Shown piece after piece: positions 13,471-42,311 of a stretch of DNA of 42,311 nt. Within the stretch, counting starts at the first letter, position 1. Every line of letters starts with the position of its first letter. The DNA lies in the NCBI GenBank assembly GCA_002633005.1, contig NMRA01000566.1, positions 230,944 through 273,254 on the forward strand, read 5' to 3'. Source of the stretch: Phoronis australis. Taxonomy: Eukaryota; Animalia; Phoronida. The notes beneath the pieces were generated by a model. The model searched no databases. It was not told the origin of the DNA and was given only the letters and a program-made list of their open reading frames with translations. Made by a program: the position numbers and the translations under genes.

Positions 13471-14438
13471 CACACGTGACTGAAAATAATTTGTCATCAA
13501 AACGAAGGTGCGACAAGCATGCATGTACTTTCTGGGAGTCTTCAAATCCCTTCTTTCGGAAAATACAGTTCTTCAAACGTTACACGCTGCCAGCCCCTGA
13601 CAGAACAACGTCCAGTGATACTTTGTTACATAGTTTGGTAGGTCATTTGCCTCCCCAGCGTCTTCTTCACCGTGACTTTAACTTTCCTTCAGATAAATAC
13701 ATCTCTAGTAAGGCTCAGTTCATTTCGCATTGTTCAGTTTTGTTTGTTTTCGACAATGCATGAACAGTATTCCTCGCACAACAGAATCAGTACAAACTGC
13801 GTAATAAATTTCTGTGAACTGCGGTAAAACGGTAGCTGAATCTCAAAATATATCTACGTTTTAAACAGACTTCTGAATACGTCATGATTTTATTCTGATA
13901 TTGATACCGAACGCGCTGCAGAAACAGGAAATAAAGCAACATAATAGAATTTTAATGAGTGTAACCAAAATATTAAATTAATTCTTTAGGTAAAAATGCG
14001 TGAACAGCTTTTCATCACCAGGTGTTCCGGTCGTTGTAGTCTGTCAAAATTGTCTCGTTCCTGCTGCTTCAAGTTTCTTGCACTGCACTACATGTATGTG
14101 TGCGTACAGGGTGTTTCGAAACTCTGGGACACCCCATTCGCTATCATATCGGCAACTACCTGTATGCACGTCTGTCGTAGACCAAAGGAAACGGAAGTTT
14201 TTAATTGTAAGTTAATATTTAAAGGTTTTATGTTAATACTTAACCCAGAGTCTGAGAAACAGGATGACTGACCGCCAGTTGTGTACTGGATCATCCTATC
14301 ACTGTTACACATACATGTACATTCACAAGGGCAAAAGCATTCATTTAGTCCGAGTTGTGACACAATGTCACCAAGCCGAGAAGAAGAGTCTTTTTGTATT
14401 TAACATATAAGGCCTGGTACGTTTGTCAATTGATCACA
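13471..14438 (+). repeat. Interspersed ~1-kb repeat, copy 1 (copy 2 at 32464-33510)
   Basis: Colinear, diverged similarity from cacacgtgactgaaaataattt through taggtcatttgcctc and ctcgttcctgctgcttcaagtttcttgca to taacatata.ggcctg. Confidence 0.9.
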
Positions 14439-17289: not shown

Positions 17290-20260
17290 CGTTTGTCTAA
17301 CTGTTACTTTACGTTTAGTTGTAAGAGTCTTCTGTAGCTCTACATGTATGTGGATTTTTGTGACGTCATCTCTGGTAGACGCTCTGCGTCTACACTCAGT
17401 CTTCCTTGACAAACTCTTTACATAATTTTTACGAAATTCATGTGGTTGGCATTTTCTTCCATGGATATTAGGAGGCACTAAATATTTTTTTGTGTCGCGG
17501 TTCAGTTTGCCTGCCTCTTCTTCATATAAAGGCACTTGCTGGGTTTGTTGGGTATATCAGTGAAAGATTGTCAGTTGACCCGTGGACTCACTTTTTGCTC
17601 AGCTTTTCTTAAAGGAGAATGCCACCCGATTTAATTAGTCTTATTTACCTCTTCATCGGTCTATATTCACATCGCCTCTTATACGGTCGACCTCACCTTG
17701 CCGAGAGGTGTCGTGTTAACCTGTGAGGAAGGTGAGAAACGACGCAGCGACGTCAGTGGTTCGTCTGCAGAGTGAATTCCGCTATATTGCGGTGCATCGT
17801 TCCCCCTTGTCCGAACTATGAAGCTGCAAAGAAAGCGGGTATGTCGTTTTTTCGACTTCCTCGAGAGCCCGAAATGCCTAGGAAGTGGCTCGCGCTAGTG
17901 AAGAATGAAAGGTACGCGGTTAATAGTAAGTAGGAGACCCTGAAACATCTCCGTGTCTGCGTTGGCATTTTGTCGACAGTGATTTCCCTGACGAATTCCC
18001 GCTTACCGAACGACTATCCATACGTTCCGTTGCCTGTGCATGTTTATGGCGCCTCTCTAGTATTTGTTGATCAGTTTATTCCGGTTCGAATTGATAGCCT
18101 GTGAAACCTAACGTTATGACCCGGGAAGTCTTCGTCGGATGAGTTCTTGACTAACTAAGTCTGGATTGGCGCTGGGCGAGTTGCCATATAGACTCTTATT
18201 ATTCTTCATTCTGTTTCAAAATGAATTGTTCTCATCCTAACCAATGCTTATATCAAACTGAAGCAAACTCTGTCTCATTAGATACAATTTGTAATGATTT
18301 TGCAGTATTCGTGAGTGCAAATGTTGAGAACCCCGCAATGAATAAACTACTGCGTAATTGACAGGGCATCGAGGCTGTGTGAGCGCATGTGTTTGCTGAC
18401 AGAAAGCTGTTGTGAAACAATTACTCGATTTTATATGCTATGGTCACATGTTAGGGGAATTTTTATTTTCAAATACAAATACATAATTAAAATCATTGTT
18501 ATTGTACAACCTTTGCCCGGACAGTATGTGGAAGGGCAATCCGACTTCGCAGCGCCCGACGAGTAAGTAGATTTTCAGTTTCGTGGCTAATTCCCATATA
18601 TAATTACGTGTACATTATTTCTCTGACTCACTTTTACAGTCTTTTATTGACTGGAGGTTTAGTTTCCAGCTCAAGCTCGTTTTTGTTCGTGCCAGTCCCG
18701 GTGGCCGCGACGGGCCTTATCGGGTTCCGAGCCACTGGCCAGGATAAAAAGCGTTTTGTATGTTTATAACTCAGAATATCACAAGTCTAAACAACAGAGT
18801 TCTAGGTTCTCTTGTCTGTATTTCACGGAAGAATACTTCGAAATTATCTCCCAACAGACCCCTAACTCCTGCTACGGACCTTGGTAAATTGGCCTGCCGA
18901 ACTTTGTAGGCTACGGTGTATCCAAATACCAATAAATCCGTTTCAGCGAAATAAAACAACACGTTTTTATAAGAACTCGGAGTATTTTTAAGGGTTTTAC
19001 ATCGAAGTTTGATGATTTATTGGTGTTAAACCAGTAACTCGTGTTGTGAACTGCTGAACATACTGCGTGTGAAACGTATGACGTCATTGGATAATTTCAA
19101 CATCTCCGTCTGCCGTCAGGTGTCAGGTAATGCAACAGAACGTGTCGTTATCTAGTGGAACTACTCGATCTAAATTGATACAAAATAGATTGTTTTGGGG
19201 TGGCATTCTCCTTTAAACCATCACTAATTGCAAACGGGAAGTTGAAATTTAGCAAGAAATTCATGTGCCAAACAGACTATTATGATTTCTGTAATCTGAA
19301 GAGTTTTGGCAGCTTGAATGAACTGTTTCTCAGTTCGTAGAAATCGCATGCAAATGATGGCTTTGTGGAGAAAACTGCTGATTCGGCGTATTTTGTTCGT
19401 TTTTTCGAATAGCAAGATATACTTCCTGTCATCGTGAAATGTTTTAAATTGACTTTGGAATCACTTTCAATATATTCTGTGCAAGATTTTTAGTCTTTGG
19501 CCCATTATACTCTTCAAATTTTCAAGTTTTGTACATCCAAAAACTGTTTGAGCTGACACCAAATCTGCAACAATTGTTGAGTGCCACCTTATTTAAAGTT
19601 CCTCTTAAACACTTACGTCTAGAATGTCTAATGATGTAACAGCTGTTTAGTATGCAATACGACCATGCATCCAGCTATTGGAGCATTGTGTGCTTGTTTC
19701 TAATGGATTGCCCCTTGATAGCGTTCAGACTATTATTCAAAAAGTTAAATTACCTGACTTCAGAAATAAACGATACTCTACGGATCATCTATCCACTCTC
19801 ATTGTTGTAGGCTATCTCGTTCTGTTGCATTAACAGATACAATTTTGGAAGTCCAATAGCAAAACACTCGTCCACGCCGCCTTTCTGGTTTCCACAAAAG
19901 CATACAGTACATGTACCACATCCTCAAGTGTTATAGTAGTCGCAGTGATGTGGTTTCGACAGGGTCAGCCATACATACAGTGTAGTATCTGGCTACTCAA
20001 GTTACGCATTTTGAAGGAACGTTTTAATTGTTTACTTGTTTCAGTGAAACTTATCTGAAATTGGAATTAAATGGTGTCCCAAGCAATGTGTTCTCTTGCC
20101 ATGTTTATCTATTTTTTAACAATGACAGGGTATTTTTCCAAAGGTGTCTCTCAGTAAGGAAATGTAGCCCAGGTCAGATTGAAAATACACGGCAACACGT
20201 GGACGTTCATGTTTTTACTGTTACTGAGTTTGTAGCTCGAATCTTGGGGTCATTAAGTGC
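17290..20260 (-). pseudogene. Heavily decayed MULE/Mutator-like transposase relic, interrupted by the Kolobok element
   Basis: Fragments in the expected order on the minus strand: ATFPY/ERHLWKN (CxxH-like, ~20131-20170), VNATE (NxxES-like, ~19820), SFISEVR, NAIKGQ, and SWIM-like SCQNSSDYRNHN/VCLAH (~19260-19320). WFKKS is restored across the TTAA insertion site. Many frameshifts are required. Confidence 0.35.
17613..19212 (+). mobile_element. Kolobok-type DNA transposon derivative (1.6 kb) carrying a THAP remnant
   Basis: TTAA at 17609-17612 and 19213-19216, with perfect 15-bp TIRs AGGAGAATGCCACCC / GGGTGGCATTCTCCT. THAP remnant at 17784-17990: ILRCIVPPCPNYEAAKKAGMSFFRLPREPEMPRKWLALVKNER...HLRVC/HFVDSDF. 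Confidence 0.9.
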
Positions 20261-21071
20261 GAACGTCGAATGGAAACTTACATGTATCTGCGTAAACCAT
20301 AATGGACTCGAGCATAGAATGATAGACACTCATCATGTTTTCGTATCATATTTATTTACAAAGCCAAATATCAAAAGTAATTTCAAGTTTCAGATTTCGA
20401 GCACACAGATTAGACCCAGGACATTAATGCCGATAAACGAGTTTCTCGTGAAACCCGTTTTGTGACTATTAGGATTGACAGAGTTTCAAGGCTCGGGTAC
20501 AAACTGAAATGTAAGAACCATGTATCTGTGTGTGTATGCATTTTTGTTGCTTATATGATGGGATGTCTTCATAGCCGAACGGTAACTAAGGGCTCAATTG
20601 TCTAAATCCCCTTACAATACAAGCGAAGCGCGTGAACACGCCGGAGGGGTGTCCTTCAGGTCTACAAAACGATGCATTGGATTGCGCCTACGTCCACAAT
20701 GTGTACTGTTTCCGCTGCACCAACCAAGACTTCTCGCCCCTGCTACGGACTGCTATTCTAAATTCACATTCCTGTTAATGATTTTTACATGAAGTATCTA
20801 TTTTACTGTGAATCGCACAACAGCAACACGCGACAAGAAAAGCCAACTAACTCTGCTGGCATTACTTGGGCTGCGTTCCGTAGACCAAGGTTTTTGCAAA
20901 ACCTAAAATTAATCACATTGTCTGTGACTTGAATTGATGATAGAATTAAAATCGCTAGTGAATATTGTGATACTGGTTTTATGAAGGTAAAATATACGAT
21001 TCAATTTTTCTGCCAGTTAGACAAAGAAGGCGAACACCGGCTGCAATTGAGGAAAAATTGGGAAAAATCAA

Positions 21072-22615
21072 GATGTCACACAAGACACTTCTGATTTGTA
21101 AAGAAAATCAACAGGTCGCTACTGTGTTGTCACCCACGTAGTTCTGGCAGTCAGTATGTGGCAGCCTGTACTGGTTCACTGTTATGGCAAGGCAGTGGTT
21201 TTTGTATTCTTTCTCCTTCTTGTACATCTAGCCAGCTGCGCTGGCGATAGTTACGCTTGTAGAAGACGAAACAAAAACTTTGAATCGACGAAGCCCAAAA
21301 TTCCATAAAATCCGGTGTCTTCTGTCTTGGTTTGGACGTTTGTGGTATGCATGACCATATATGGTAATTTGAAAAGCTCGAACAGTATTGTGAATAGTTA
21401 CGTTTATTTTTTTGTCGTTCTTGTACTCTTTTTTGTTTCAAAAACACGAAGTTGTTAGGAATACATCGATTTAGTCTGTTTTTGTGATAGGAGCAAATGC
21501 AACCAACAAAGAGACAAACGCAAAAATACTATTAGGAAGCACAGTGGTAGACAAAACGTTTGTGCTTCTATTCGGATTCGTGTATGGGCCTATGCAGAGG
21601 ACATTATCTGTGCTAAAGGTAGGCGCATCCAACAATATATGAGTCACTTGGCTGAGAAGGGCCGCGAAATAACGAATTATATAGGATATACAGGTCTACG
21701 AGCAGTGATGTAGTGGTAAAATTAGAGGTAAGTAGGCGCCCAAAACCCACCTTATCACATTGAGCACTGAACGTAACTTACGGTGCGTAGGCGCTACGTT
21801 CGAATGCCAAAAGGTGGTTGGCTGCGCCTANCGACAGTACAAATTAACTCAAGCTCCAAGCGGTGCACTGCATGGAAGTGGTTTTTATTATAAGCTGGAC
21901 ATTAGTGAGCATAAATTACAAGTACATGTACGAAGCTCCCTGCAGAGTCTACATGTATGCATGCGGCGTACATTTGATTTGCTTAAAAATAACTAATGTA
22001 GTTTTCCCAAATAGGCAGCTGCAACAGAAGGTAGAAATATTTCATAAGGCACCGTTTTGCTCCATCACTTTGAAGTCCGCATCTTTCCTGCAGGCTTTAC
22101 ACCTGGCCTCTGAAAGGCTAACCCCAAGATCTTACGTCCCGTGTTGTTATTTAAAATTATCTCAATAATAGAGCCAGAGAATCAAAACCCTCAGGCTGAG
22201 TATGACTGTAGATTAAATATTCATTCTATGGTATGAATATGAATGGAAGTTATAGGCTACACTGCAAATTGTACAATAAAATAGATAAACAATTGCGTGT
22301 GCAGGAATGAACTAGTTCTGTTGCAGCTGATTAACTGTAATTAACGTAGGACTATGGTTAACAGATTGTTGAAATGTGCGTCATCAGTTGACAGCAAAAT
22401 GGCACACAAGATCAGTGCGACTGATTGCAGCAGCTCACTGTAGGAAGACTCTCTGGAATGGACTCATCTGAAATTTCTCGGTGCATTGGATCTCTGCGTT
22501 TTTCGACTTTAGCCTTGTCGAAATCATCCGGTAACAGTTGCCTACAAATGTGTTGCACAGTCGTCCCAGATACATGTAGCATAAGACAGTCATAAGAATT
22601 AGAAAACGTCATCTG
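21072..22615 (-). pseudogene. Cystine-knot family paralogue D (pseudogene); N-terminal exon ~22615-22439, knot region ~21360-21072
   Basis: N exon: signal-like RFLILMTVLCYMYLG, then after a frameshift DDFDKAKVEKRRDP and a GTGAGC donor at 22438. Knot region: HIWSCIPQ, FYGILGFVDSK (FVDSK identical to the intact gene, 13/15 nt), RSWLDVQEG, NHCLAITVNQYRLPHTDCQNYVGDNTVATC* and a degenerate terminal CxC. Confidence 0.65.
21702..21871. mobile_element. Short CAGTG...CACTG MITE with TAGGCGC subterminal motifs, within paralogue D's intron
   Basis: gcagtg at the left end and cactgc at the right end, with repeated taggcgc/gcgccta inside. Confidence 0.35.
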
Positions 22616-23324
22616 CTAGCAGAATAAGACTGACACCCACGGTTGAGACAATGGTTGTCGATTTTTAATCATAAAAGGCATACAATAAGAACGTGTTTGA
22701 ATCCAAAACATTGGTCACAGATTTTTTCAGAATGCTTCCAGTGGCCTGGAAAAGATCATCAAATTTCAGAGGATTGAAGTAGCAATTTCTGATAGAACCT
22801 ATGGAATCACAAATATCTACATGATCCTTCTCAGAATTGGCTGAAATTTTACCAGTGGATTCATATCCACCTCAAACGACAACAACCGCCGTAATACATG
22901 TACATTCATTGACCAATCGGTCTATTTTTATACCCTCATGACTATTTTTATTTGAAACGAATGCAAACATTCCACCCCAAAATGACCTCTTTTGGTAACA
23001 TGTAGATTTGACTCTGATATTCCACCCTGTAGGTGTGTATAATGTGCATCCTAAGTCCAAAAATATAATTTTCAACGAAATGAAATTGCCCCCTTCGTGA
23101 GGGCACTCGTTTCGTCGTATCATTTAGTTTAACTCAAATTAAGCTATTAGGAAGGATATAGCAAGCTATAACAAAATGACTCTTGAAATTAGTTGACAAT
23201 GAATACACGTTACCACAATGACACAACAAAGGTCAAAAGTCTGGTCTTTTTGATTTCATTCCTGAAACTCAACTGAAAATGTGCTTTTTGTATTTCAAGT
23301 GTCAAGTACCGCTTGTAATTGCTC

Positions 23325-24063
23325 AGTTATATGAACTACAAACAATGACTGAAAGGATTTAATTGGCAGTAGATGCATTATTTGGCGAGAATTATCTTGT
23401 TTACAGTTTCTTCGCTCTCCGATTGGTTGGTTGCATCAGCGTTGTCATCAGACACATAGTGTAGAGGGTAATTTCAGGAAGTGATTTCCATGGGAGTATG
23501 GATGCTGCAGTGTGCAATTTTAAACGGTATTTTCCACGAAAATGCTTACATGATGAGGTCCTTATTAAAATGGGAAGCTGCTTAAGAAGCGCAGCAGAGC
23601 ATGTACGATCTACGCGTTAAGTTAGTGAGCCAGTTTTTAAATAGAACCCTCCCTAGCCAGAGTGAGATTGTTTGTTATATTGCTCCATGCACGGAAGCAC
23701 AATTTATATCGTTCAATTGCTAAAACGTTTTCTCGCTGAACTTAGTAACTACAAAACTCACAAATAAGAGACGTCGGTTTCATAACCCATACCCAAGTCC
23801 GTTGAAAGGTAAAAGTTAAATGTTTTCTAGTTACACCCTACACTCTGATATTAGGGGCTGATCTGAGTAACACTGAGTTTGTTATTTTGTAATTTGTTGA
23901 AGGGCCAGAAAACGCCCTGACGTAACTTCCACAATCATCACCTCTGTCACTCTTCGCCTTACTGCCCCATCATTACCAATTTGGAGTGTTGTCACCAGAC
24001 TACATAGAAAAATCACTACAGTTAACAGAATTAAGGGAGCGGCTCGCCCAACGCCAAATACAT
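23325..24063 (-). pseudogene. Cystine-knot family paralogue C (pseudogene); N-terminal part 24063-~23890, knot region ~23610-23325
   Basis: Signal peptide plus propeptide RAAPLILLTVVIFLCSLVTTLQIGNDGAVRRR; the ATG at 24063 is one base out of frame. Knot region across frameshifts: RTCSAALLKQLPILIRTSSCKHF / KIPFKIAHCSI / LPWKSLPEITLYTMCLMTTLMQ / RNCKQDNSRQIMHLLPIKSF, matching CYKLRIPFVDSKC and RCDRDADCPWITLPVV of the intact gene. Confidence 0.6.
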
Positions 24064-24459
24064 TCGAATCCACTTAACGTATACAGATCGTGATGTTTGC
24101 ACTGCATCTTTTTTGTAAAATATGCTTTGTGATCACAGCATCTGAGTAGCTAAATAGTGCAAGGTGAACTCAGTAAAAGTACAAAAAGCACTCCATTACG
24201 GCGTTGTCCCGTTGCTCCTACCTTGTTTGATTCTATAGCCCAACAAGTTGGGAAGATGACCCCGGTAGCCAATATCTTACACGACTGATTAACTCCAGTC
24301 TGGCACTTAGCGTTGGGGAGCCAGCTCTCTTTTGTTCGATAATTGCTCTAATCTCCAAAAAGATCCTATCTAGCGTGACTGGGCAGTGCTGTTAAAAATA
24401 AAAGTTTAGCCATAACATATCTGAACATACATGTACATGTAAACCATTAGCATTTCTAA

Positions 24460-24727
24460 ATACTTCGTCAAATGCTGATCATGTTTAGATTTGAATCGCC
24501 AAAATCGCCCAACTACAACCGAAGTTACGACAATCCATTCTTTCCGAACGTACAAATTTGCTTTGGGCTTGACTGTGATCACACCTGCTCTGTAACAAGC
24601 CTGGTAGATAATTGGCTTGCCTGCTGTCATACCAGACAAAAGACTGTGCTTGGCAGTTAACAAAGAAGCTAGATGATATCACACGCTCACAACCCTCTAC
24701 GCATGGAAAAGGAGAGAACGACGTCAT
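24460..24727 (-). pseudogene. Cystine-knot family paralogue B, C-terminal exon (internally deleted pseudogene)
   Basis: After the acceptor ttctctccttttccatgcgtag (exon from 24696): GCERVISSSFFVNCQAQSFVWYDSRQANYLPGLLQSRCDHSQAQSKFVRSERMDCRNFGCSWAILAIQI*, then a degenerate HD-x-I-x in place of HECVC. It aligns to SKCD and SERDVRCDRDADCPWITLPVV of the intact gene, with the C3-C4 segment missing. Confidence 0.7.
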
Positions 24728-26393
24728 GCAGCGAGGAAAACACCAATCTTTATGTATGTACTAAGCAAGCCCAATACTATCGAAATCACACTGGTTTCAT
24801 ATTCACACATGCCATATCCTTTGCTTGAATTCCCATTGAAAATGTCCAAAATCAGCCCGTTGAAAATTCGCAAAATTCTCAGTTTTATTTAAATGAAAAT
24901 GTCTATGTTAAATATCAAACATGTTTCTCAGTCTTAAGGTCAGACACATTCGCAGAAAAAAATCATACTCACTCCTAATTTTCAAGATGTCTCAACAGTG
25001 TTTCAAAGTTTACAACTTTTTCACTGAAATACAGCCATTTTTGCAAGATCAGTATGTAAACGAAAACGAGGCTTGGGTCAGAAAAATCCAAGGTGGTTTG
25101 GTGCATAAGTCGGCGTAGTCCAAGCCCTCATAAAGTTTCAGACAGGTCTGTGACGTGGATGTAGAGCCACCTGTTGGTGCTCTTGGTACTTAAGTGAAAT
25201 GTAGCTTTGAATTCCGAAAATGTGTATATTTCAATATACAAGTTTTGTTTTTAGTAAAATGATGTCACATTGAAAGGGTATCTTGTGGAATTATGTTTAA
25301 TAAAACTACATGTAGCCAGCTTTAAAATTAATCTTGAATAGTTTTCAACATGAAGCATGAACAGAAGTGTAATCACAATAGCGGACTTTTCATACTGGCG
25401 TTCTCTGCAGTAATGAGCACGAGAACACGACTTTCGCGTGATCCAGACTCAGATTCGCTGGACAGAAATTCACAATTACATAGTGGTTCATTAATTTAAA
25501 GACACTGGAATAAATCTTATTGTAAGAATATCTCATCATTTGATTAGATTGAGTTCACTTATTTATTTTAGCTTGCTGACTATGGCTATGCAGCACAGAT
25601 TCTCTTTCGCAGTGGGAGATGCATGGTACATGATGTCCTTCATCCAAGTATATTTCAAAAGGTTCGCCTTCTTCCGTAACCCATTTCTACATCCCACCGC
25701 ATATCAGTGGAAATATTCCGGTGTTATGATAGCAGGAGAGATGTTAAAATGCTATTCATCACCAGTAGGTTGACACCTCCCGGCTGCATTACATGACAGC
25801 TGTACATGTACATGTAGGTGGCAGTAAACACGAGTTCTCCTGATCGCCGTCTTTGGGCATAGTGAATTTCAATATGGTGAGGTTATTTCGAAAGTCAGCT
25901 ATTACATTGCGGACCAGAATTACCAGAACAACATTTAATTTTAAGATCTCAAGATATTTGGTGGGCGAACGGACACAACAAGAAGAACTAACTTCACATT
26001 TGACAACAACAGTTACAATCATTTTAGAAATGAAATAAGTGTCATCGCATGATGTGACTACTATAGCCGGTACAACAGCCTACCGTTCAGTAACGCTAGG
26101 ACCTCGCTAAACAGCAAGACTTCGTGGGATTACGTGAGATACTGCCATGTATTTTGAATGAGAACACGTTATTATTCTCAATTTCCGTAATTTCAGATTC
26201 CTGTACGTGTGCATCAGTTCAAGAACGATCTGAGTGACGACTACGTTATCTTTGAAATTGTATAGTTACCACCTGAGTGTAAAAACGTAGTTATTTTCTT
26301 TGGTTATTTTTTGTTCACTTTTTGGTTCATATTGTTTTAATGATTCTCTATTGCCAATTGTTTCGTCATTATTTAATGTAATAGCAAGCTGAT

Positions 26394-26474
26394 ATTGGTG
26401 AATGTGCCCCAACTCATCGGGAAGGTAAGGCAACTTGCCTTACCTTCCCGATGAGTTGGGGCACATTCACCAAT
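26394..26474. repeat. Perfect palindrome: 40-bp arms with a 1-nt spacer
   Basis: attggtgaatgtgccccaactcatcgggaaggtaaggcaa, then c (26434), then the exact reverse complement. It extends a further 5 bp (agctg/cagct) past a 2-nt bulge. Confidence 0.97.
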
Positions 26475-26954
26475 CAGCTAATAGACTTTGGTAATACGTT
26501 AGAAGAAAAAAATAATCTAGCTCTGAAAGTGTATTTTCTTCGACTCAATCGCGTGAAATCGGGACCAAAACTGCTATCAGCTGAAAGACATTATTAGTGT
26601 TGTGTGCGACGTGTTAAAACATGAAACCCTTTCATTTTACACGGGTAGTTTAAACTGTTTTAATTTAACGCGCTCCTACAAAACTTACATCCTTATACGA
26701 CTTGAAGCCCTCAAAGTAGTTCAAAAACTGTTCAAGTCTAAAACGTTTTCTGAAACGACGAATTGAAACTTTTTAAATTAGGAAACGAGTTTTCAAGGGC
26801 TTGAAAACTTGACAAAGACCTAACATTTGTAGTGGATCGTGTAGTTACAGTACTATCTCATTTAGCTCCTAGCCATTTAAAGCGATGCAGTTGAGTAGGT
26901 GATAAACAGTAAACTTGTTGCTACTGAGCTGTAAGCTATTTTGTGCATAAAGAT

Positions 26955-29900
26955 TTATTGTTGACCAAGTGGAACACAGACACACTCATGTTCAACCACT
27001 GGCAAAGTTATCCAAGGACAATCCGCATCACGGTCACATCTAACATCGCGTTCGGAAGTCATTCGCCTAGTCACACATCTGCCGTCGAAGGGTTTCCCGT
27101 TCTTGTCTAGCTCACGGCATTTTTCCCTGAAAAGAGTACAATTCAACATATCACGAAAAAAGATTTATATCGCCAAAAGCACCTGTTGGGCTTAGGCGAA
27201 TATTGGGGTAGGAAGCAGAAGGGGAGAGGGTGGGGCGAGATAGCTTCCCGCAATACTCCGTGTGGTATAACGTAACAGTTATTCAATAATTAGTTATTAA
27301 ATCTTTCGTACATGAAATCAAAATTGACCAATTCTTGTGTTGCATGGTTGTTTTGAGAGATGCTTTACTGAAATGTCCGTGAAATGCAACATCCGTAGGT
27401 TATCGAATGAGATCACCCCCAATGTCCACGGTAAAGCTCGGTATGGTATACTGGCGGGCCGTCCGGCAGCGTTATCACATGTGGCGTGTGCACGGACTCT
27501 ATTTATTTTGCATACTAGACTGTTACGTCTTAACTGAAATCAACTGCAGTAAGTTAATTCTTGATTGCTTTGTGTTGCCCAGACAGCCAAAGCTAAATAG
27601 ATGCGCACAGCCTCATAAAGTCTTTGAACATAACATTTTGGTTACTTGGAAGAGATAAAAGTTATCCCAATGTCACATCCTACACCCTTACACAAAGTTG
27701 ACTATTTGTGTTATATTAATCAAAGCTAACCACAGGTCATGGGCAAGGTAACCGCACGCAATAAATCCGAACCTTCATATCAGTGCGTGCGCACAGAAAC
27801 TAGACCTTTCCAAACCCTCTGCTTCAAGAAGCATCCCTGGTTGAACCTCTTGTGTGATGTGAAATGCTGTCTACTGCATTCAGACAAAAAACTGTTAACA
27901 TTAAGCTAGAAATTGATGGAACAATTATTCATTGAGTATGTTTCTCAAAACTGGAAAAAAAAAACAAGTGAACGTTTTCTCGATCATGAAAACGAAGATA
28001 CCAGGTAACGGTAGACAATTTCAAGTTTTGTTGTTCCAGTGCAGCAGTGAACATTTCCACTTAGATGTCTGGAAAAAAAGAAAAGGGATCAAGCAATACA
28101 CAGAGTTATGGTCCTCAAACAGTTGTCAAGTCTAAAATTTTTATTGCCTCAAAGTCTAGACATTCTTGTTCACAAACCAGAAGAAGGTAATGAATTCGAT
28201 TATTGAAGTTTCAGAGTGAATTCTCGCTAAATCTGCTGCGACAGCTGGAGGCAAATAATCAACATTTGACGCCGGATACAATCAATGACAATTTCCAGTA
28301 CGGCAGCTGTTGAGCGTTTACCCATGATAGTTGGTTTGCTATTTTGGCAGATGAAGTGAGAGGTATTTCAATTCTGGAGCAGCTGTCTCCTTGTGTAAGA
28401 CATGTCGTCCGGACGACAACTTGATAGAATTTGAAATTTAGAACTTTCCTCACATTAATCAATGTAACATCAACTCAAGCGGATCTCATTGCAGCAGCTA
28501 CTCAAGACGTTTTGATACGTTACACGCACATGCACATCTTTGATATTTAGAAAAGAATTTCCCAGTTAACAAAATGATCGCTGAAACGCATGATACTGTT
28601 CAAACGCTGGAAGGAATAAATTAACGGTGTGGTGGAAACATCAGACCTTCGTGACCAGATAGAATGTCCGGGTAAGGGCTAGTAAAGTCGTACTAGGAAA
28701 CTAGGAATGCATTATGAAGCAAATAAACAAGACTTGAGCAACACCATTAATATCTAAAAAAGATGGAGGAGTGTTAGCTCAACTGGAATAATTCTCCACA
28801 TATTTTGGCTTGCGACTTCCATATACAGTTTCTAGCTCCACTCCATAGAGTAGATGTCTACTATAGTTTAATGCAAAGACAACTCCGTTCAAGGCGAATA
28901 AGTTCACACAACAGCACTCTCTGAAGTTAAGAAGGGAATGAACGTTCCCTTCCCTTTTCGTCGACGTGTGCGTGAAAGCAAGATATCTCATCAACGAACC
29001 TGTGCTGCCAACGTATGACGTGCAAGCACCAAAGAGGATTGAAGAGGAACAATCTGTACCTCACTGGTTTTCTTCTCTCAGGGAATATTTTCGCCGTGCA
29101 GGTGAACTGTGGGATACTCGACAAGGTAATAGGAGAAATGGATGAGCACTTCGACCAAAAGTCTTTGTACCCCTTAAGCCATTTAAGAACTTCGTGCAAT
29201 AGAGCTCAGTGAAGAGACGACATTGAAATACCTGACGTGACCAGTAACAGTTACAGGTAAGATCTTGACCTGCGAAAGTTAAGTCACCAGCTTTGTTTTC
29301 TTCCTGATCTTAGTGATATGGCAAAATGCAGCCCTGCGTTTGCTAACTTAAGAAGAGTGACTAGTATTCGCAAATTGGTGAGCTTCATGCAAGAGTTGTC
29401 AGCCGCCAGGAAGATGCTAAGTGAAGTTCAGTCTTTGGTAAGACGATACCTAACGATCCCAGTTATCGCAACGACAGCGTAAAGAGGCTTCTCGTCATGC
29501 ATCCGCTTAAATTCAAGTCTGAGGTAGTCCACGACACTGAAAAGACTGACCAACGTGGAGGAAGGAAGCGACAGACTCACTGTGTCTAAGAGATATAGCA
29601 TGTTTCAGCCAACGACATGATTGCTGTGTCATTCTTCATCTTCTCTTGGAGTATTATTCTTAAGTAGGTCCATACATGTATGTCTTTTTTGCTGTGTGAA
29701 ATTTCGGGTAAAGAATTGTAATATGCATACATATGTACGAGCATACATACATGAAGGCATACATAAATACATACTCACATACACACACATACATACATAC
29801 ATTTGCACTGCATACATGTACAGATATACATACATACATGCATGCATACTTATATACATGTACATACATACATGTGCATAGATGTATGTCCTCAACTTTT

Positions 29901-31072
29901 TAAACATCTCCTACTTAACACTTACCTATCTAGATCGCACTTTGAATCCACAAACGGTATTCGCAGTTTGTAGCACATCTTTATCTTTGTTACTTGTTCG
30001 ATTGTTTTTATGCAAGGTTGAAGCTCTTCGTTGTTCTGGCAATCAGCGCCAGAGCAGGTTTGGTTTGTTCCAGGGGAGGCAGTAGTTCCAGGGTTAGAAC
30101 TGCCACCACCTGGCTCTGAACAGTCGCAAGTATGGCTACAGTTGCAAGTGCAAGTATGAACAACTTTGTCAGTGTTATGATCTGATTCCCGTTTCTCAAC
30201 ATCGGTAACTGCCCCGGGCTTTGAGACGACTATTTTCATGAGGGTGACGTATGTCAGCAGCGTAACCTAGGTGAAAATATAGTGACACTGAGGCCAGAAA
30301 ACATCGAAGTATTTCGTCTACTCATTGAGTTGTGACAATATTTCTCAGAATCTTGGTAACACTCCACGACCGGCGCTGAATCCCGACATTTATCTTATTG
30401 TCACATAAGCGTTGAATCCTCTCGAGGGAAATACGGCCATGCAATAATGTTTTCTGTATTCACCTCCCGCACTGCTTCAACAGTGACCTCTGACATTGAA
30501 GGTTCAAAAGGTACATGTAGGTCAATGTCGACTCGACGTCGTTAGCCGGTTAGATCATCAAACTTTCGGAAAATAGCTTTAAGTAATACAATTGTAGCAG
30601 TGTAAATATCAATCAACATGCAACCAGGTCTCAGTCGTAACATCTGGAACAGGACTGTTAATTATACGACAGTTCTGTCTCAGTTTTCAATCGCTAAGAC
30701 ATATCGTCTGCAACTCAGGCACCAATTCTTCGCCAATATCAAACACTGTTGTCACTGGCCATGACGGCACCCGATACTATCGGCGACAGTATTACACGAG
30801 CAGTATCGACGACCGTCCCAGCAACACGTGATCCTATCCATGCTACAGAATCCGTAGCCAGCCAGCTAGCTGTATCAACAGACTGTCGTGTATTTAATAT
30901 ACAGCTTTGTACCAAGGCTGCAGAATCCGTAGAAATGCGACAACGTACCTGCAACAACGCTACATCAGACATATTCGCCGGAGCTGTATGTCCAAAAAAG
31001 TGAATTAGTGAAATATGCTGTTTTTAAGATACATTTGAAAAAAGAAGCCACTCACTCACAGTTTGTTATCAT
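26955..31072 (-). CDS. Secreted cysteine-rich cystine-knot-like precursor, 186 aa (178 aa from the second Met); coding exons 31072-31060, 30983-30949, 30266-29926, 27126-26955
   Basis: Canonical donors (GTGAGT, GTACGT, GTAAGT) and acceptors (catacag, ttttcacctag, ctcttttcag) with phases 1,0,2 give a 561-nt open frame: MITNSPANMSDVALLQVTLLTYVTLMKIVVS-KPGAVTDVEKR-ESDHNTDKVVHTCTCNCSHTCDCSEPGGGSSNPGTTASPGTNQTCSGADCQNNEELQPCIKTIEQVTKIKMCYKLRIPFVDSKCDLDREKCRELDKNGKPFDGRCVTRRMTSERDVRCDRDADCPWITLPVVEHECVCVPLGQQ*. It has a signal peptide, a dibasic site, 16 Cys and a terminal CxC. Confidence 0.8.
27740..29600 (+). pseudogene. Decayed hAT transposase (TTF zinc finger / DUF4371 / hAT dimerisation; ZMYM1-like type) in intron 3 of the cystine-knot gene
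   Basis: RPFQTLCFKKHPWL, QNWKK..ERFLDHE, WFAILADEVRGISILEQLSPCVRHV (28332-28406), VTR*NVRVRA, EPVLP, ILDKVIGEMDEHFDQ and YLTIPVIATTA*RGFSSCIRLNSSLR*STTLKRL (29447-29550). Many stops and frameshifts. Confidence 0.9.
29722..29890. repeat. Degenerate (TACA)n/(CATA)n simple repeat
   Basis: Tract of catacatacat/tacatgta variants. Confidence 0.9.
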
Positions 31073-31183
31073 ATTGTGAATACGAACTCGTCCGGGTATT
31101 CGTTTGACGTTCGTAAGCAGACGAACGCTGGAAACTTCAACGCCAGATGTCGCAGGACCGCGCAGAAGAGGAAATAAGATCGT

Positions 31184-31231
31184 TCACGACTTTAGGGCAC
31201 TCACGACTTTAGGACCTCTGACGGTATATAT
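31184..31231 (-). promoter_or_regulatory. Candidate core promoter of the cystine-knot gene
   Basis: TATATA at 31230-31225 on the minus strand, about 155 nt upstream of the first ATG. A duplicated 13-mer tcacgactttagg (31184-31196, 31201-31213) lies at the expected start site. Confidence 0.4.
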
Positions 31232-32029
31232 CCAAAACCGTGCCGTGTCTATCCAATATCGTTCAAATTGAACTGATCTCTGTTTACTTTGTACGTGCAG
31301 GAAGCTAGTTTATTTCGTCTCCATATGAACCTAAGCCTTTAATTCGAATTTGGGTGCATGATCCGTGTGAGAAACACAATTACAGTGTATAGCTAAATAG
31401 ATCGTAATATTATGATTTGCCATTGGAGCTAAGACTTGAATTTCTATCGTCCATAGCATTAGCCGGTGGTTGACATGTGTAGAGTATTACACGAAAAAAG
31501 GCGAAACGAAACGAGACATAATGAGGCTTATTCAGCAGAATACTCCTTCGAGGGAAATAGGTTTACACATGTATGCCCACACAAGTATTACACATGCCCA
31601 TTTAACATTTGTTTGAGTTGGTATATTTTGTTTCATAGAAATGCTTTGGAACACAACACTGGCGATTCTAGCTTCCTAAAATTTCTTCCACACGTCGGAA
31701 CAACACGCGCTCTTAAATTTTACATAGTGCATTAATTCACGAATGCTCGTTGCAATAATGAAGAGGAGGAAGATAGAATCGTCCGAAGTTAATGGTTGTC
31801 TTGAATGGCATTTGAATTATTACAATTTAAGTTTGTTTATAGGCCACAGCATAGCTTGATCCGTAAGACGACAAAACAAAATTAAAATGCACAGATTACT
31901 CCAGCGGAGATATTTTTTTACGTGAGCAAGAGACCGTGAAAATGTGTTCAGGGCGCACAGTAATATATTTATTTTTTTGCATCACCGCTGAACTATGGAA
32001 CAGGCCTAGTGTCACTTTGTGAAGAGTCA

Positions 32030-32463: not shown

Positions 32464-33510
32464 CACACGTGACTGAAAATAATTTTCTCATCAATAGGTA
32501 CATTAAATACGACAAGCATGCATGCATGTTCTTTCCGGCAGTCTCCAAACCCCTTCTTTCGGAAAATGCAGTTCTTGATGTACATGTGTATTACATTCTG
32601 CCTGCCTCTGACAGAACAACGTACAGTGTGATCTTATTACATAATTTACTAGGTCATTTGCCTCGCCAGCGACTTCTTTACTGTGATTTTAACTTTCCTA
32701 TAGATAGCTATATTTTAACAAGGCTCTGTTCATTTCACATTGCTCCGTTTTGTTTGTTTTCGACAAAGCATGTACAGTAGGCCTAGCACAACAAAAAATT
32801 ACTACAACCTACTGTACGGTAATAAGTTACTGTGAACTGCGGTAAAACGGTTATGGAAACAAACAATACATTTACATGTACGTTTAAAAGAGACTTCTGA
32901 ATATGGTATGGTATTATTCTTATACTGATACTGTTTGCAAAATTGTGTTGCAAAAACAGGAAACAAAGCATCAGTTTTGAATGGAACTCATAATAAAATT
33001 TTAATGAGTGTAACAAAAGTATGGCATAGAAATTCGTGAACAACTTACTGAAAATATGAACTTCATCGCCAGGTGTTCTGATCGTTGTAGTCCGTCAAAA
33101 TTGACTCGTTCCTGCTGCTTCAAGTTTCTTGCATTGCACTATTATATATGCATGCGTATGCATACAGGGTGTTTCAAAACTGTGGGACACCAATGGCTTC
33201 CCTATACAGTGTAGGCAACTATGCACGTCTGTTGTAGACAAAATGAATCGTGTCACTGAGTTTTTAATTGTAAGTTAACATTTCAAAAGTTTTCTGTTAA
33301 TGCTTAATGGAAGAGATACAAAGCCCTCTGAGAAACAAAATAACTGACGGTCAGTTGTCACTGTTACACATTCCCAGGGACAAAAGCACTGATTTAGACT
33401 GCATTGTGACAGACAGTCACCAAGGCCATAGGAAGACTGTCTTTGTGTTTTTAACATATACGGCCTGAGCACGTTCAAAACAATTTACGGCAATTAGAGA
33501 GGCTATCCTT
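32464..33510 (+). repeat. Interspersed ~1-kb repeat, copy 2 (copy 1 at 13471-14438)
   Basis: Colinear with copy 1 over its length and in the same orientation. Confidence 0.9.
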
Positions 33511-35275: not shown

Positions 35276-36170
35276 CTAGGGAAGAGGAAAAAGCAGACAC
35301 GCGAATGTAGTTTTTAGTGCGTCAGATTCCCAGCGCCCCATGCGCTGGATCACCGGTTCAGGGACGCCACAGCTGGCCGCTGATGTGGCGGCGCCAATGC
35401 GAAAGCTATGCGACGTATAAGACTTCGAGGTGTCGCGTCCTACAAAGGAAACCACCTTAGTTACCATGGAGTTGAAACAGGAAAGTGTAACCGGTGATCC
35501 ACTGAGGTGTTGGAACAGGGGCCTGGAGAGGGCTGAAAAGTGGAAAAGTACAAGGTTAGGGCAGCTACCGGGCAATGGGGAGATCGACTGGATGGAATCG
35601 TAAGTGACACTGGTCCAGAGCTGTTCTTGAAAGTACGCATACTGATGACTACAGAATCGCCAGAGAGGGGGGGAAGACGACGTCGCTGACCTGTATGACG
35701 TGGGAGGAGAGCGAGGGGGTGATTGTGAATTCACCGACTGTGAGGAAGGCTAGGAGGAACATGGCACGTGCGAGAATCGAGTCGGCAAAAGAGCAGATTG
35801 CAGAAGGACAGGCTCCAAACAAGCAGTGAAGCAAAGTTTAAGTAATGGGCATGCCTGTGTCAGAACAGGAGCGCATATTGGAAGCACCTTTGAGGATTTT
35901 TTTGATGAAAAAGGAGGAAGTGGGGCCAGGGAGTTTGTCAAGCTTGTGGACAAAACTAATGGCAGAGACATAGGACTGGATAAACGAGCTACTAAGGCCA
36001 GATTCAAAAAGATGGGAGATGTAGTGGGCTAGGATAGAGGTATTAATGGGAGGAGAGTTGTTAGAGGAGAGGTGAAACTGTGCAAGGTTATGCAAGATGC
36101 TGGTGTAGGACTGAAGAGTGGAGGGGGGCAGGGAAGCCCGGAGCAGTCTGGTCACGCTGCGAGGAGGTGT
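35276..36170 (-). pseudogene. Tyrosine recombinase (YR) ORF remnant of the Ngaro/DIRS element
   Basis: N-terminal LLRASLPPSTLQSY...IQSYVSAISFVHKL...FFIKKILKGA, then AMFLLAF..VGEFT, and the catalytic box YTSHSFRIGAATSAASCGVPEPVIQRMGRWESDA. Frameshifted. Confidence 0.92.
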
Positions 36171-37126
36171 NNNNNNNNNNNNNNNNNNNNNNNNNNNNNN
36201 NNNNNNNNNNNNNNNNNNNNNNNNNNNNNNNNNNNNNNNNNNNNNNNNNNNNNNNNNNNNNNNNNNNNNNNNNNNNNNNNNNNNNNNNNNNNNNNNNNNN
36301 NNNNNNNNNNNNNNNNNNNNNNNNNNNNNNNNNNNNNNNNNNNNNNNNNNNNNNNNNNNNNNNNNNNNNNNNNNNNNNNNNNNNNNNNNNNNNNNNNNNN
36401 NNNNNNNNNNNNNNNNNNNNNNNNNNNNNNNNNNNNNNNNNNNNNNNNNNNNNNNNNNNNNNNNNNNNNNNNNNNNNNNNNNNNNNNNNNNNNNNNNNNN
36501 NNNNNNNNNNNNNNNNNNNNNNNNNNNNNNNNNNNNNNNNNNNNNNNNNNNNNNNNNNNNNNNNNNNNNNNNNNNNNNNNNNNNNNNNNNNNNNNNNNNN
36601 NNNNNNNNNNNNNNNNNNNNNNNNNNNNNNNNNNNNNNNNNNNNNNNNNNNNNNNNNNNNNNNNNNNNNNNNNNNNNNNNNNNNNNNNNNNNNNNNNNNN
36701 NNNNNNNNNNNNNNNNNNNNNNNNNNNNNNNNNNNNNNNNNNNNNNNNNNNNNNNNNNNNNNNNNNNNNNNNNNNNNNNNNNNNNNNNNNNNNNNNNNNN
36801 NNNNNNNNNNNNNNNNNNNNNNNNNNNNNNNNNNNNNNNNNNNNNNNNNNNNNNNNNNNNNNNNNNNNNNNNNNNNNNNNNNNNNNNNNNNNNNNNNNNN
36901 NNNNNNNNNNNNNNNNNNNNNNNNNNNNNNNNNNNNNNNNNNNNNNNNNNNNNNNNNNNNNNNNNNNNNNNNNNNNNNNNNNNNNNNNNNNNNNNNNNNN
37001 NNNNNNNNNNNNNNNNNNNNNNNNNNNNNNNNNNNNNNNNNNNNNNNNNNNNNNNNNNNNNNNNNNNNNNNNNNNNNNNNNNNNNNNNNNNNNNNNNNNN
37101 NNNNNNNNNNNNNNNNNNNNNNNNNN
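36171..37126. other. Assembly gap (956 N)
   Basis: Run of N. Confidence 1.
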
Positions 37127-38009
37127 CTGTTGAATAGTTTTTGTAATGCTAAATGTTGTAAAGTATTGTGCATTTTAATTTACTTATTATGTTAAAAGTT
37201 TGAATCATTTTGGCTTAATGAATAAAAAATGATAACATCTTGTATTGGACTTGTCATACTTATGTGCTCGAACGAGCCCCCTTTTTGGAGAACTGGCAAA
37301 AGGTCTGCCTCAGTCACAGAAGCACGAATTATGAAAAAAGTAGAAAATGAGACAATATTCCACTAGAAGACAGGAAGTACCAAAATTTAGAGTCTGCAAT
37401 TCATAGCTCTGAACATACCCGTTGAATCTTGTAGTAAAAGATAGACATTCCCAAAAATTCCAGCCCCCCCCCCCATTCTTTTAGGCTTGGTGCGCTCATA
37501 CAAAGTCTGGGAACAACTTTGCACAGTTCGCCAGAAGTACCCAAGTTCTAAATAAACCTCGTTTGAGCGAGCGCTTTGGCCAGCGACCAGTTAGGCCTAA
37601 GGGTAGCCTTGGCGCAAAGCTGTGTAGGCCTACTAACAAGCTGTATTTTGACGATAGTCTTCACTGGTAGCTGGTGACTGAGGCTAACTAAGGTCTGCCG
37701 CGGCAGTGTGACACAGGACTAACCAGCCTGTAATTTCATGCAAGTGTCTGAAACTACCCTTGAATATATGCAGCACTTATGATTTGACCATTTTACTTCG
37801 ACAAAACAGCTTGCAACCGCATGCATTTACCGTTCGCCACTGTCTGGTCTCGATCCGCACCTGGTCCGATAGGCTGCCGTCCCGAGTCTGGCAAAGTAAT
37901 TTCTGTCAAAAATTTTTCGCCACATTTCTTCAGCAAATTCGATAAAATTGTCCGTAGTTTGATTTTATTAAAATTAAGGCGCGCTGACGATTATTTTATC
38001 CCCGTTTGC

Positions 38010-39300
38010 TGGCTGGTGATATGACTGGCTTTGCAGGTGCTCGGGCCACGGGCAGGCAAACCAGGAAGCCCCCAATGTTGCAGCAAAGCCCCCATTGGAG
38101 CCTGCAGCATCAGAGAACAGTTTGATGGTGTCTGAAGATGTCCACTCTTCGAATAGGAACAGTGTTTTCTATTTGAAGTCTCGAAGCAATTTGGACCCAG
38201 TCCTAAGGTCCGCTCTAGCTTCTTTATTGAGAGTGGCGAAGTGCCCTGGTCTCGAACTAACAATGGTGAGGTTGATGAGGGGACTCAGGAAGGCGTGGCC
38301 GGGCACGATGACGGAGCTGGCGAAGTTTAGTAGACCAATGAGGGATTGAAGATCGCGGAGCGTAACCTTGCGGCGCTTCTGGAAGTCGAGGAGGAGGTTG
38401 GAAGCTTTGTCCACCTTGTCCTTTGGGAGAGAAGCAGTCATGGTGGTAGAGTCGAGGTGGATGCCATAAATGGGGATGGAGGTGGTCGGCTGAATTTTCT
38501 TGTCGTGGTTGATAGGGATTCCTAGGGAGTCGCAGAGTGATATGAATGCGGCAAGGTCCCGGGAGGCGAGGATGGGAGCCCACGAAAAAGAAGTCATCGA
38601 GGTAGTGCGAAACGCCGGCGACCTTCAGCTTGGTTTCCAGGATCCATTGAATCACAGAACTGACCTTCTCGAAGATGTTGCAGCTGGAGGCACAGCCAAA
38701 TGGCAGGAACCAGTCTTAGTAGAAGTTGTTGGCCCAGGAGAGACCTGAGAGGTGGTAGTCGTCAAGCTGCTCCGGTACGATGCGAAAAGCGTCCTTGATG
38801 TCAGTCTTAGCCATGAGGGAGGGCGTCCAAACCGTTGAATCAGGCGGATAGCGTCCGTGGTGGATTGGTAATGGACTTGGGAGAAATACGGGGGTATGAG
38901 GGAGTTAACGAAGTTAGAGTAACGAGATGGATATGACAAGTTATGAATGAGACGAAAACCGTTAGGATGAGATTTAGGGATGAGGGCAAGGGGTGACGAA
39001 GAGAAAAGGCGAAAAGGAGGGGATGGGAAAGGACCAGCATAGCGACCCAGCAGAACTTCAGTCTGTATTTTCTGAAAAGTAAAGTAACTTCGGGATTACG
39101 GAGAGCTGATGGGTGGTTGGTGGGGGGATTGGAGTGACAGATCGGGGAGGCGCCGAGCCTGAAACCAAAAGAGAAACCATTGATAAGCTCCGTAGCCGAG
39201 AGGGAGTCATACCATAACCTGAAAGGAGAGGTTTAGTTTTGTTTACTTTTACGGGTGTTGGGATACCTGGCAGGTGTGTTGGCGGTTTTGGAGGTGGATA
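38010..39300 (-). pseudogene. Reverse transcriptase and N-terminal RNase H remnant of the Ngaro/DIRS element
   Basis: PTPVKV, LINGFSFGFRLG, YAGPFPSPPF..SPLALIPK..GFRLIHNLSYP, MAKTDIKDAFRIVP, LPFGCASSCNIFEK, VSHYLDDFFFVG, LRDLQSLIGLLNFASSVIVPG, and RNase H LFSDAAGSNGGFAATLGASWFACPWP. Confidence 0.93.
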
Positions 39301-39439
39301 AACGCTCTGGGTGGTTGGCGCCGCAGAAGCGATTATTATCAAGTGTCTATTTTGTGAAGATTGGCCACCCTTTGGTTTAGCTGGTTGTGGCTCACACATG
39401 TCTGTAGGATTTCTCGTGCTAGTGGCTCTGGTCAATACG

Positions 39440-39812
39440 GCCTAAAAGCCGCAAAATGTTCCCTAAAATGGGAATTAAATCGAATTCATTTTCTGTTTTT
39501 CAAGTACTTGAGTGTGATGCCCGTATTCACTCTCCTCTCTGTCTGCACAATACTTGTCCAGTTCTCGCTCAAAATCGTCCTCGTCTTCTGATCTGTTTTG
39601 TTCTGCTATTGCAATTGATAATCAAGTGACCAAACGTCCTTCACCCAGTACATCATTTGTCGGGAGACTTAAAAATAGCTAATATTTCTTAAAAGTTAAA
39701 CAATTGCAACGATTTGGCATAAACAGTGCTTAATTATATAGATTTAATGGTATTCATTTCACGATAGCTAACTGAAACTTTAAAAACTAAGAAAATGCAT
39801 GAGGGGAACTCT
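39440..39812 (+). mobile_element. Right end of a Kolobok-type element
   Basis: Ends CATGAGGGGAACTCT (39798-39812) followed by TTAA. Its reverse complement AGAGTTCCCCTCATG matches the 34108 left end at 11/15. Confidence 0.5.
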
Positions 39813-40239: not shown

Positions 40240-41346
40240 AAAAAGGGGAGGGGGGACGGGAAGGGGAAGAACTTTCATACACACATTCACAATCATATTC
40301 ACACAGTTTAATTATCTTATGTTTACATTTACGTAGGTGCATATTTGTGAAAAGGCCAATTTTCTTATAATACAACAGAAGTGGTTAAAAAATAACGCCA
40401 TATACATGTATTGGTTGAATCATTTTAAAGAGATGCCTGCAAAACCCTCCACTGTTCTTAAGTTTTAGTCGAGGCATTAAATACAATGAGGTTCACTGCG
40501 TCAAAAAGTATAAATCTGAACTAATTAAAACAAGGTTGAGACCCATCTCTCGATGATGTATAAATATAATGTTGGGCATGAGTGTATATGGTATTGAAGA
40601 TTTCACATAGATTGCCAAAGAAGCAAACTAAGAAGTGGTACATACATGTAGATGGCTCAGTGTGTAAATTAAAAACTTTACTTATGAAAGGATGGAAAGA
40701 ATTCCAGAAACATTTAACACAGAAGCAGCTATAAAACATATGCTGAAAAGTCACAGTAGGGCCATTGGTCTGTTTGTGAAATACCAAATATTTTTAACAT
40801 TTTGTTTGTATTAATTCTTTTGTGAATGAAAAAGTGTTTAAACATTGTCAAATGAGGGTTTATGGGTAGATTGAAAGGGAGATTGTAAATTTCTTTAATT
40901 TCGGCGTCTGTGTAATAGCTGAGTAAAAACGCATAATTATCTGGTCTTACAGAAAACTTGTGAATAAATATGTTTTTGATCCATGAATTGGAACTATTGA
41001 AGAATAAAAATCTAATGTTGTTACAACTAACAATCCTTCTATCTGACACGCTCAGAACTTACATGTACTTCAAGGTCGTTGTAGTGGAAGAAAATGGTAT
41101 GATTGACGTATCCTTTAACTTCCTCTTAATGTTTTCCCATTTAAGAAGTTTGTTCTGGCTATGTAAAAAATCTTCACAAAATTTGAGGCCTGCATTGTAC
41201 AGATCTTGGTAAAATAATGAATTACCGTTAACAGTTAAATTACAATTGTTCCATATTCCTTGTTTGGCTATTAGTACTTCCTTAAAAGTTTCAGGATTAA
41301 GAATATCCAAGGTAAAATTAATGTTTGTTTCCCCAGACAGACCCAC
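40240..41346 (-). mobile_element. 3' fragment of a Tx1/L1-clade LINE ORF2
   Basis: QGIWNNCNLTVNGNSLFYQDLYNAGLKFCEDFL, IYNLPFNL..LTMFKHFFIHKRINTNKMLKIFGISQTDQWPYC and HMFYSCFCVKCFWN (zf-RVT region). Frameshifted. Confidence 0.85.
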
Positions 41347-41834
41347 AAACGTGTATTAACGATCAACAACCTCGAGAATTTTGTCAAAAAACAAGTATTA
41401 AACGATATTACCTGTTACTCTGAGTAGGCCCGTGCTGCCGGGCTGAACTTTCCTATTTCAGTTCCGCCAAGATTGAAAAATGCACTGCATGAATGATCTA
41501 TTTTTTCTAAATGTCAGGCACTCCTGATAAAACTACATACATCACTGATATTTGCTTTTTTGACCTTTTTCGTGTCAGCGAATGCATTAATGAAATTTTG
41601 CCTGGATTACAATAGCAATTGCGTACAAGATATGGCAAAGTAATTGGAACGCTTACACGTGAAGAAGCAGGACAAGTCACTTGTGCTTGACACAATATTT
41701 TTTGAAATATGGGCAAAACATTCATGAAAGAGAGCTAGTGCTTCGTCTGACTGATATTCCATGACAGGTCTATTCCGTTGTATTCTCGGAAGCAAAAAGC
41801 TTGTTCTTCGAGTGTGCCATTTTGTTTATTTAGC

Positions 41835-42311
41835 ATGCCACCCAAAAAACAATCTAATTTGCATCAATAACGACACGTACGGTTGCGTTACCTGACACCT
41901 GACGGCAGACGGAGGTGTTGAAAGTATCCAATGGCGTCATCGGTTTCACACGCAGTCTGTTCAGCAGTTCACGACACGGGTTACTGGTGTCAGCTTATCG
42001 CTTGAAGTCATCGTTTAACACCAATAAATCATCAAACTTCGATGTAAAACCCTTAAAAATACACCGAGTTCTTATAAAAACGTGTTGTTTTATTTCGCTC
42101 TTACGGATTTATTGGTATTTGGAAACACCGTAGCCTACAAAGTTCCGCAAGCCAATAAGGTCCGTAGCCAGGGTTTGGGGTCTGTTCGGGGATAATTTCG
42201 AAGTATTTTCCGTGAGATACAGACAGGAGAACCTAGATCTGTGTTGTTTAGACTAATGATTTTTTGAGTTCTATACACAAAACGCTTGTTATCCTGGCTA
42301 GTGGCTCGGAG
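41835..42311 (-). mobile_element. Second, inverted copy of the Kolobok element at 17613-19212 (right-end portion, runs off the window)
   Basis: Reverse complement of ~18725-19206. It starts atgccacccaaaaaacaatcta (TIR lacking the terminal AGGAGA), continues ttacctgacacctgacggcagacggag, and ends gtggctcgga. Confidence 0.92.

Follow-up and report, generated by a model that had tools for sequence, protein, structure and literature searches.

Gene A, on the minus strand of the window (the whole 42,311-nucleotide stretch of DNA analysed here), is a real, multi-exon, spliced and transcribed gene, and at least two diverged sister genes, located outside the window, are also expressed. The family is real and unnamed. 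From its sequence it is likely to be a cystine-knot family whose precursor is laid out like that of a knot growth factor, and sequence does not demonstrate membership in any named family.

RNA support was taken from four public runs (X1 to X4) carrying the same species label and covering the stretches 29890-31400 and 20900-27300. X1 consists of assembled contigs and X2-X4 of raw reads from stranded libraries. The window, eukaryotic and probably from an invertebrate animal to judge by its GT-AG introns and repeat content, has a GC content of about 40%, and its long open reading frames are confined to transposon pieces. Exons 2 and 3 of gene A are bounded by AG and GT and keep the reading frame when joined (Table 1). 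An X1 contig of 519 nt (depth 99.7) aligned with its letters 1-337 to 30261-29925 (6 differences) and with letters 335-517 to 27128-26946 (1 difference); its 7 differences in total, about 1.3%, are allele-like. As this contig lies on both exons, splicing across the 2.8-kb GT-AG intron is established and the predicted exon 2-3 junction is confirmed. The first mates of raw reads over both exons come from one strand only, as minus-strand RNA predicts. Gene A's own reads are scarce, the diagnostic end of exon 2 being covered about threefold in X4 and not at all in X2 and X3. A degenerate CATA microsatellite (29742-29874) opens the second intron.

The start codon was placed through reads crossing the 30266 acceptor. 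In X3, 125 reads have a loose end at this acceptor that, compared by hand, corresponds to window 33078-33049 in 29 of 30 letters. These reads come mostly from sister genes, so that gene A's own use of the 33066 exon is something we strongly infer. The earlier note had described a 186-residue protein beginning at an ATG at 31072 and continuing through a mini-exon at 30983-30949. Such a model can be built from these parts; no joint to either of them, or from them to exon 2, was present among the joints listed, and both lie within 30400-31260, which is recognized as a repeat because it is read on both strands with many differences. This 5′ end was rejected.

Table 1. Features of gene A and of the surrounding sequence in the window.
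Feature	Position	Strand	Description and evidence
TATA-like box, candidate	33141..33148	-	About 80 nt upstream of ATG 33066; from sequence only
Gene A exon 1, very probable	33049..33078	-	ATG 33066, six codons MKFIFS, GTAAGT donor; loose-end read match
Repeat-derived intron sequence	30400..31260		Holds the 31072 ATG and mini-exon; both-strand reads, many differences
Gene A exon 2	29926..30266	-	341 nt, AG/GT ends; rest of leader, KR residues 31-32, Cys/His cluster, Pro/Gly/Thr/Ser linker, Cys77, 82, 91, 104, 116; X1 contig and minus-strand reads
Gene A exon 3	26946..27126	-	Cys123, 137, 150, 156, 168, 170; coding to 26955, stop 26957-26955
Gene A AATAAA	26959-26954	-	X1 transcript contig ends at 26946, 8 nt past AATAAA
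High-copy interspersed repeat containing "paralogue B"	24230..24760		150-230x both-strand reads in X2-X4, at most 13 X1 contigs, many differences
Unit C, no feature seen	23325..23610	-	Depth <1 in all runs; scores reached by 18 and 6 of 100 shuffles
Possible exon, unexplained	22439..22612	-	174 nt, open frame, AG before and GT after, contains VEKRR
Unit D, no feature seen	21072..21360	-	Depth <1; scores reached by 57 and 50 of 100 shuffles
Dead duplicate of gene A promoter, exon 1 and start of intron 1	13471..14423	-	72% identical to 32464-33475; blastn E 7e-163, alignment

With exon 1 placed in this way, the gene A model specifies a precursor of 176 residues with 16 Cys, at positions 45, 47, 49, 53, 55, 77, 82, 91, 104, 116, 123, 137, 150, 156, 168 and 170, a KR pair at 31-32 and two N-glycosylation sequons. 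Hydropathy is 1.3-2.1 over residues 1-20 and no other segment of the precursor is strongly hydrophobic. The product is likely to be secreted; its agreement with the secreted precursors of the superfamily of cystine-knot growth factors is by hydropathy heuristic and depends on the inferred exon 1. The N-terminal part carries a CxCxC/His cluster. The C-terminal part follows the pattern C91-x24-C116-x6-C123-x13-C137-x30-C168-x-C170 with an extra Cys pair, C150-C156, so that C91, C116, C123, C137, C168 and C170 occupy the places of Cys I-VI in order, the Cys V-x-Cys VI pair lying close to the C-terminus. A loose knot-like order was reached in 291 of 20000 residue shuffles, and both this pattern and the Noggin spacing considered below were selected post hoc with the protein already known. 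The intron between exons 2 and 3 splits the Cys domain between Cys II and III.

Other X1 contigs, of word depth 6514-18858 against 99.7 for gene A (word depth being a poor measure of expression), show about 10% differences on parts of exons 2/3 and then diverge beyond the alignment limit. With about 10% differences as against about 1.3% in the allele-like contig, they represent other genes. Two classes of X3 reads, about 90 that depart from gene A at 30187 and about 25 that run through the Cys cluster with at least 4 differences, indicate at least two sisters. A blastn comparison of the window with itself found no further copy of either exon 2 or exon 3; the live sister genes are located outside the window. 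Hand translation of the sister loose ends shows Cys retained at the C91, C116 and C150 positions amid changed flanking residues, and at the C168 codon sister transcripts differ from gene A only synonymously. Among the sister codon differences listed, which stand beside 202 and 297 further rows and come from alignable stretches that favour conserved sequence, 7 of 15 were synonymous, with no stop and no loss of Cys. The linker is repeat-expanded in one sister transcript (27-nt back-step joint). Local depth of the main sister in the bin 30043-30093 was 159 in X3 as against 14 in X2 and no more than 9 in X4 with similar read amounts, and sister expression was taken as sample-dependent, with no rank among genes implied.

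The earlier note had viewed gene A as the intact member of a tandem array in which three same-strand neighbours, B, C and D, were decayed paralogues. The peptide strings it quoted are all present in the six-frame translation. A tblastn search of the window with the gene A protein gave best E values of 2.7 (D) and 9.5 (C), with nothing listed at B. Frameshift-aware alignment scored 334 for the exon 3 control and 28, 32 and 29 for B, C and D. Dinucleotide shuffles equalled the full-protein scores in 52, 18 and 57 of 100 cases respectively and reached those of the knot-part query in 41, 6 and 50, while 172, 45 and 285 of 537 ordinary 300-bp tiles of the window scored as well. The score of D against the gene A cDNA was reached by only 4 of 200 mononucleotide shuffles but by 22 of 548 real tiles. 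CxC is absent from all nine minus-strand frames of B, C and D (background 3.7 Cys per 100 codons). Frameshift-aware scores are thus at the level of shuffles, the outcome that the earlier note itself had named as speaking against paralogy. B lies in a high-copy repeat (Table 1), by these comparisons C and D appear to be chance matches, indistinguishable from background, and a tandem array of decayed paralogues is not seen. The resemblance to Trunk, PTTH and Noggin proposed for B is not supported, its motif having been drawn from the high-copy repeat. What survives is a family of several diverging members, of secreted type, in which the Cys order is like that of a knot; the four-unit birth-and-death array within 10 kb is not upheld, and the corrected gene model replaces the previous one.

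The only true duplicate in the window, as judged by alignment, is the segment at 13471-14423, outside the coordinates considered earlier, and it is the local sign of duplication and loss. It keeps an ATG (14015), has lost the splice donor by deletion and has an altered TATA-like box; a copy of exons 2-3 accompanying it is absent from the window. Several other repeats are present. Those at 21700-21830, 24230-24760 and 26070-26170 are high-copy with both strands transcribed, and many opposite-strand joints at 26070-26170 suggest an inverted-repeat element. A motif of about 20 nt is common to minus-strand positions ~23460 (in C), 24005 and 22570, the latter two lying in the extra "signal" segments; the pair involving C is equalled by 23 of 1014 tiles and may be due to chance. 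DIRS-like retrotransposon pieces of about 50% GC occupy 35276-39441 on the minus strand around an N gap (~36170-37130), with a tyrosine-recombinase frame (Phage_integrase, E 6.6e-4) and a reverse-transcriptase frame (RVT_thumb, E 2.5e-4), both below the Pfam cut-off. Two adjoining open frames at 40729-41355 (minus strand) look by eye like the end of a decayed LINE reverse-transcriptase ORF and have no Pfam match. Further copies are 18726-19151 against 41867-42310 (inverted, 84.5%), 3754-3904 against 4249-4423 (short direct duplicate, 82%) and 2324-2439 against 2816-2929 (short inverted pair, 76%).

Remote searches and fold models were each carried out on single exon pieces rather than on the whole spliced domain. 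Neither exon piece matched any Pfam family, including knot families and IL17, or any PDB sequence, and no homologue of them was found in the protein database, the Atlas or metagenome contigs. Among 1.84 billion representatives the exon-piece queries found no relative, the sole match being one bacterial repeat protein. Exon 3 holds four of the six knot Cys, yet it has no match in Pfam, PDB or the representatives, which argues against membership in a named family. The exon 3 model, made from the sequence with no alignments (pLDDT 66), has no helix; its beta strands include some near C137 and C168-C170, and a fold search with this model of half a domain returned no knot or other match. The exon 2 model, also with no alignments, was unusable (pLDDT 48). 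In the growth-factor knot, as given in PMC4079206, the I-IV bond threads a ring made by II-V and III-VI. From the order of its Cys, a cystine-knot fold is fairly probable for the gene A product.

The reading that joins these results, to which we give somewhat better than an even chance, is that of one spliced gene whose 176-residue, KR-cut secreted product has a C-terminal growth-factor knot and acts as a ligand or ligand trap, with a repeat and two chance matches for neighbours. The precursor would enter the secretory pathway, lose its leader near residue 21 and be cut by a convertase at K31-R32, freeing a short pro-piece. The knot disulfides would be C91-C137, C116-C168 and C123-C170 (I-IV, II-V, III-VI), with C150-C156 closing a further loop, and C77, C82, C104 and the N-terminal Cys/His cluster may form additional intra- or inter-chain bonds. 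The variable Pro/Gly/Thr linker could be a flexible spacer tethering the knot domain to the Cys/His cluster. The mature extracellular product would engage a receptor or sequester a ligand, as happens in the Noggin/Trunk/PTTH group. The family would duplicate and lose copies, its local trace being the dead promoter/exon-1 copy 19 kb downstream. Within the knot reading a ligand or ligand trap is modestly favoured, and a bulk secreted structural or defence product is somewhat less probable. The latter keeps a sizeable share because the sister transcripts are deep and sample-dependent and the N-terminus is cross-linkable; coagulogen provides a precedent. Coagulogen is an abundant protein, similar in size to the gene A product.

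A different account, possible but doubtful, is that the product is secreted and disulfide-rich and has no growth-factor knot, being a lineage-specific mucus, cement, metal-binding or defence protein with a Cys order that merely looks knot-like. Secreted Cys-rich lineage-specific families are common in animals. Such an account would fit the lack of library matches for either exon piece and of any strict family motif, the N-terminal CxCxC/His cluster, the repeat-expanded linker of one sister and the high word depth of sister contigs in X1, poor as that depth is as an expression measure. The eight-Cys order with its terminal CxC is, on the other side, uncommon among shuffles, and a leader, a dibasic site and a C-terminal Cys domain together make the precursor layout of the neurotrophin type outlined in PMC4812194. 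That gene A instead belongs, though highly diverged, to one of the named families (neurotrophin/Spaetzle, or Noggin-like/Trunk/IL-17) and would be named at once by whole-domain profiles is unlikely. It overlaps with the knot reading and differs from it solely in membership. Exon pieces alone were searched, and the intron cuts through the domain after Cys II and before Cys III; invertebrate neurotrophins and IL-17s are described as diverging strongly and varying in Cys (PMC2772990, PMC11087794). Against this the strict motifs are absent from the protein.

It is still less probable that the earlier note was partly right. On that view 22439-22612, the 24040 segment and either C or D would be ancient remnants of more distant relatives in the family, or an exon still in use, with too much divergence for gene A by itself to reveal them. 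The scores of the two extra signal segments against gene A are reached by 58 and 45 of 100 shuffles. The open 174-nt AG..GT frame with VEKRR favours a relic or exon, as do minus-strand reads at 22398-22611, which amount to 2.0x in X3, where family reads are more plentiful than in the other raw-read runs, and to 0 in X1, X2 and X4. The 22600 and 24040 "signal" segments resemble each other more than any of 200 shuffles, and only 3 other tiles of 1016 beat or equal this likeness (4 with the partner included). The locus was duplicated at least once, and the knot-query score of C (6 of 100 shuffles) and the mononucleotide-shuffle score of D (4 of 200) also speak for this view. Set against these points, every score against gene A is at chance, CxC is absent from B, C and D, B is a repeat, and reads on C and D are almost absent. 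The segments had been chosen as signal-peptide lookalikes, a choice that raises their similarity to each other. VEKRR and the hydrophobic run at 22600 lie in separate frames. The translation of 22439-22612 has no Pfam match, and its score against gene A is reached by 45 of 100 shuffles. Fast divergence often causes invertebrate cystine-knot ligands to be missed (PMC4812194, PMC2586362). On the preferred reading, the cystine-knot superfamily would gain a branch, an expressed and spliced family of several genes, unmatched in databases and mixed in its Cys pattern, which could be deorphanised or prove a structural co-option.

Compared with known systems, gene A resembles neurotrophins and Spaetzle in its pre-pro layout with a dibasic site and in the residues C, R, L, D and C that its Cys III-IV segment has in common with the consensus of PMC2772990. 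The neurotrophin consensus [GSRE]-C-[KRL]-G-[LIVT]-[DE]-x3-[YW]-x-S-x-C (PMC2772990) is matched by gene A at 5 of 9 positions if the spacer is given 5 residues, an agreement equalled by 4104 and 6433 of 20000 shuffles. Gene A differs in lacking the consensus G, the aromatic Y/W and S, in two inserted residues and in a pro-region of only about 10 residues. The NGF-family domain has six knot Cys only, according to PMC4079206, and gene A has C104, C150 and C156 in addition; some invertebrate neurotrophins also carry an extra Cys, and Daphnia Spz7/8 underwent lineage-specific tandem expansions (both PMC2772990). Invertebrate IL-17 of type 1A, according to PMC11087794, keeps all six knot Cys with little sequence conservation in multi-gene families. 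The gene A family resembles it by description, the exon pieces having no Pfam IL17 match. Horseshoe crab coagulogen is an NGF-like knot serving clotting and not signalling (PMC2586362), and is for gene A an analogy only, the gene A exon pieces being without a match in Pfam or PDB.

No CxGxC, as in the eight-membered CXGXC ring of CAN/DAN BMP antagonists and other knots of that type, occurs past residue 60 of the gene A protein. The published Noggin motif is CX22CX5CX7CX14CX10CX12-CXCXC with a 10-membered ring (10.1101/510602), and the protein does not follow the strict Noggin or Noggin-like motif ending in CXCXC. It differs from Noggin in having no terminal CxCxC and in bearing the extra Cys104 and, in front, the Cys/His cluster and linker. 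Noggin itself has an N-terminal clip domain that Noggin-like proteins lack, and the Noggin/Trunk/PTTH group functions in receptor binding or ligand trapping, according to PMC9071555. The receptors by which Trunk, PTTH and IL-17 are defined are Torso and IL-17R. The gene A spacing CX24CX6CX13CX12CX5CX11CXC differs from that of Noggin by a sum of 17, which was approached as closely in 43 of 20000 shuffles. Gene A shares with Noggin, Noggin-like proteins, Trunk and PTTH the eight-Cys order, the additional pair lying after knot Cys IV and before V, and the late CxC.
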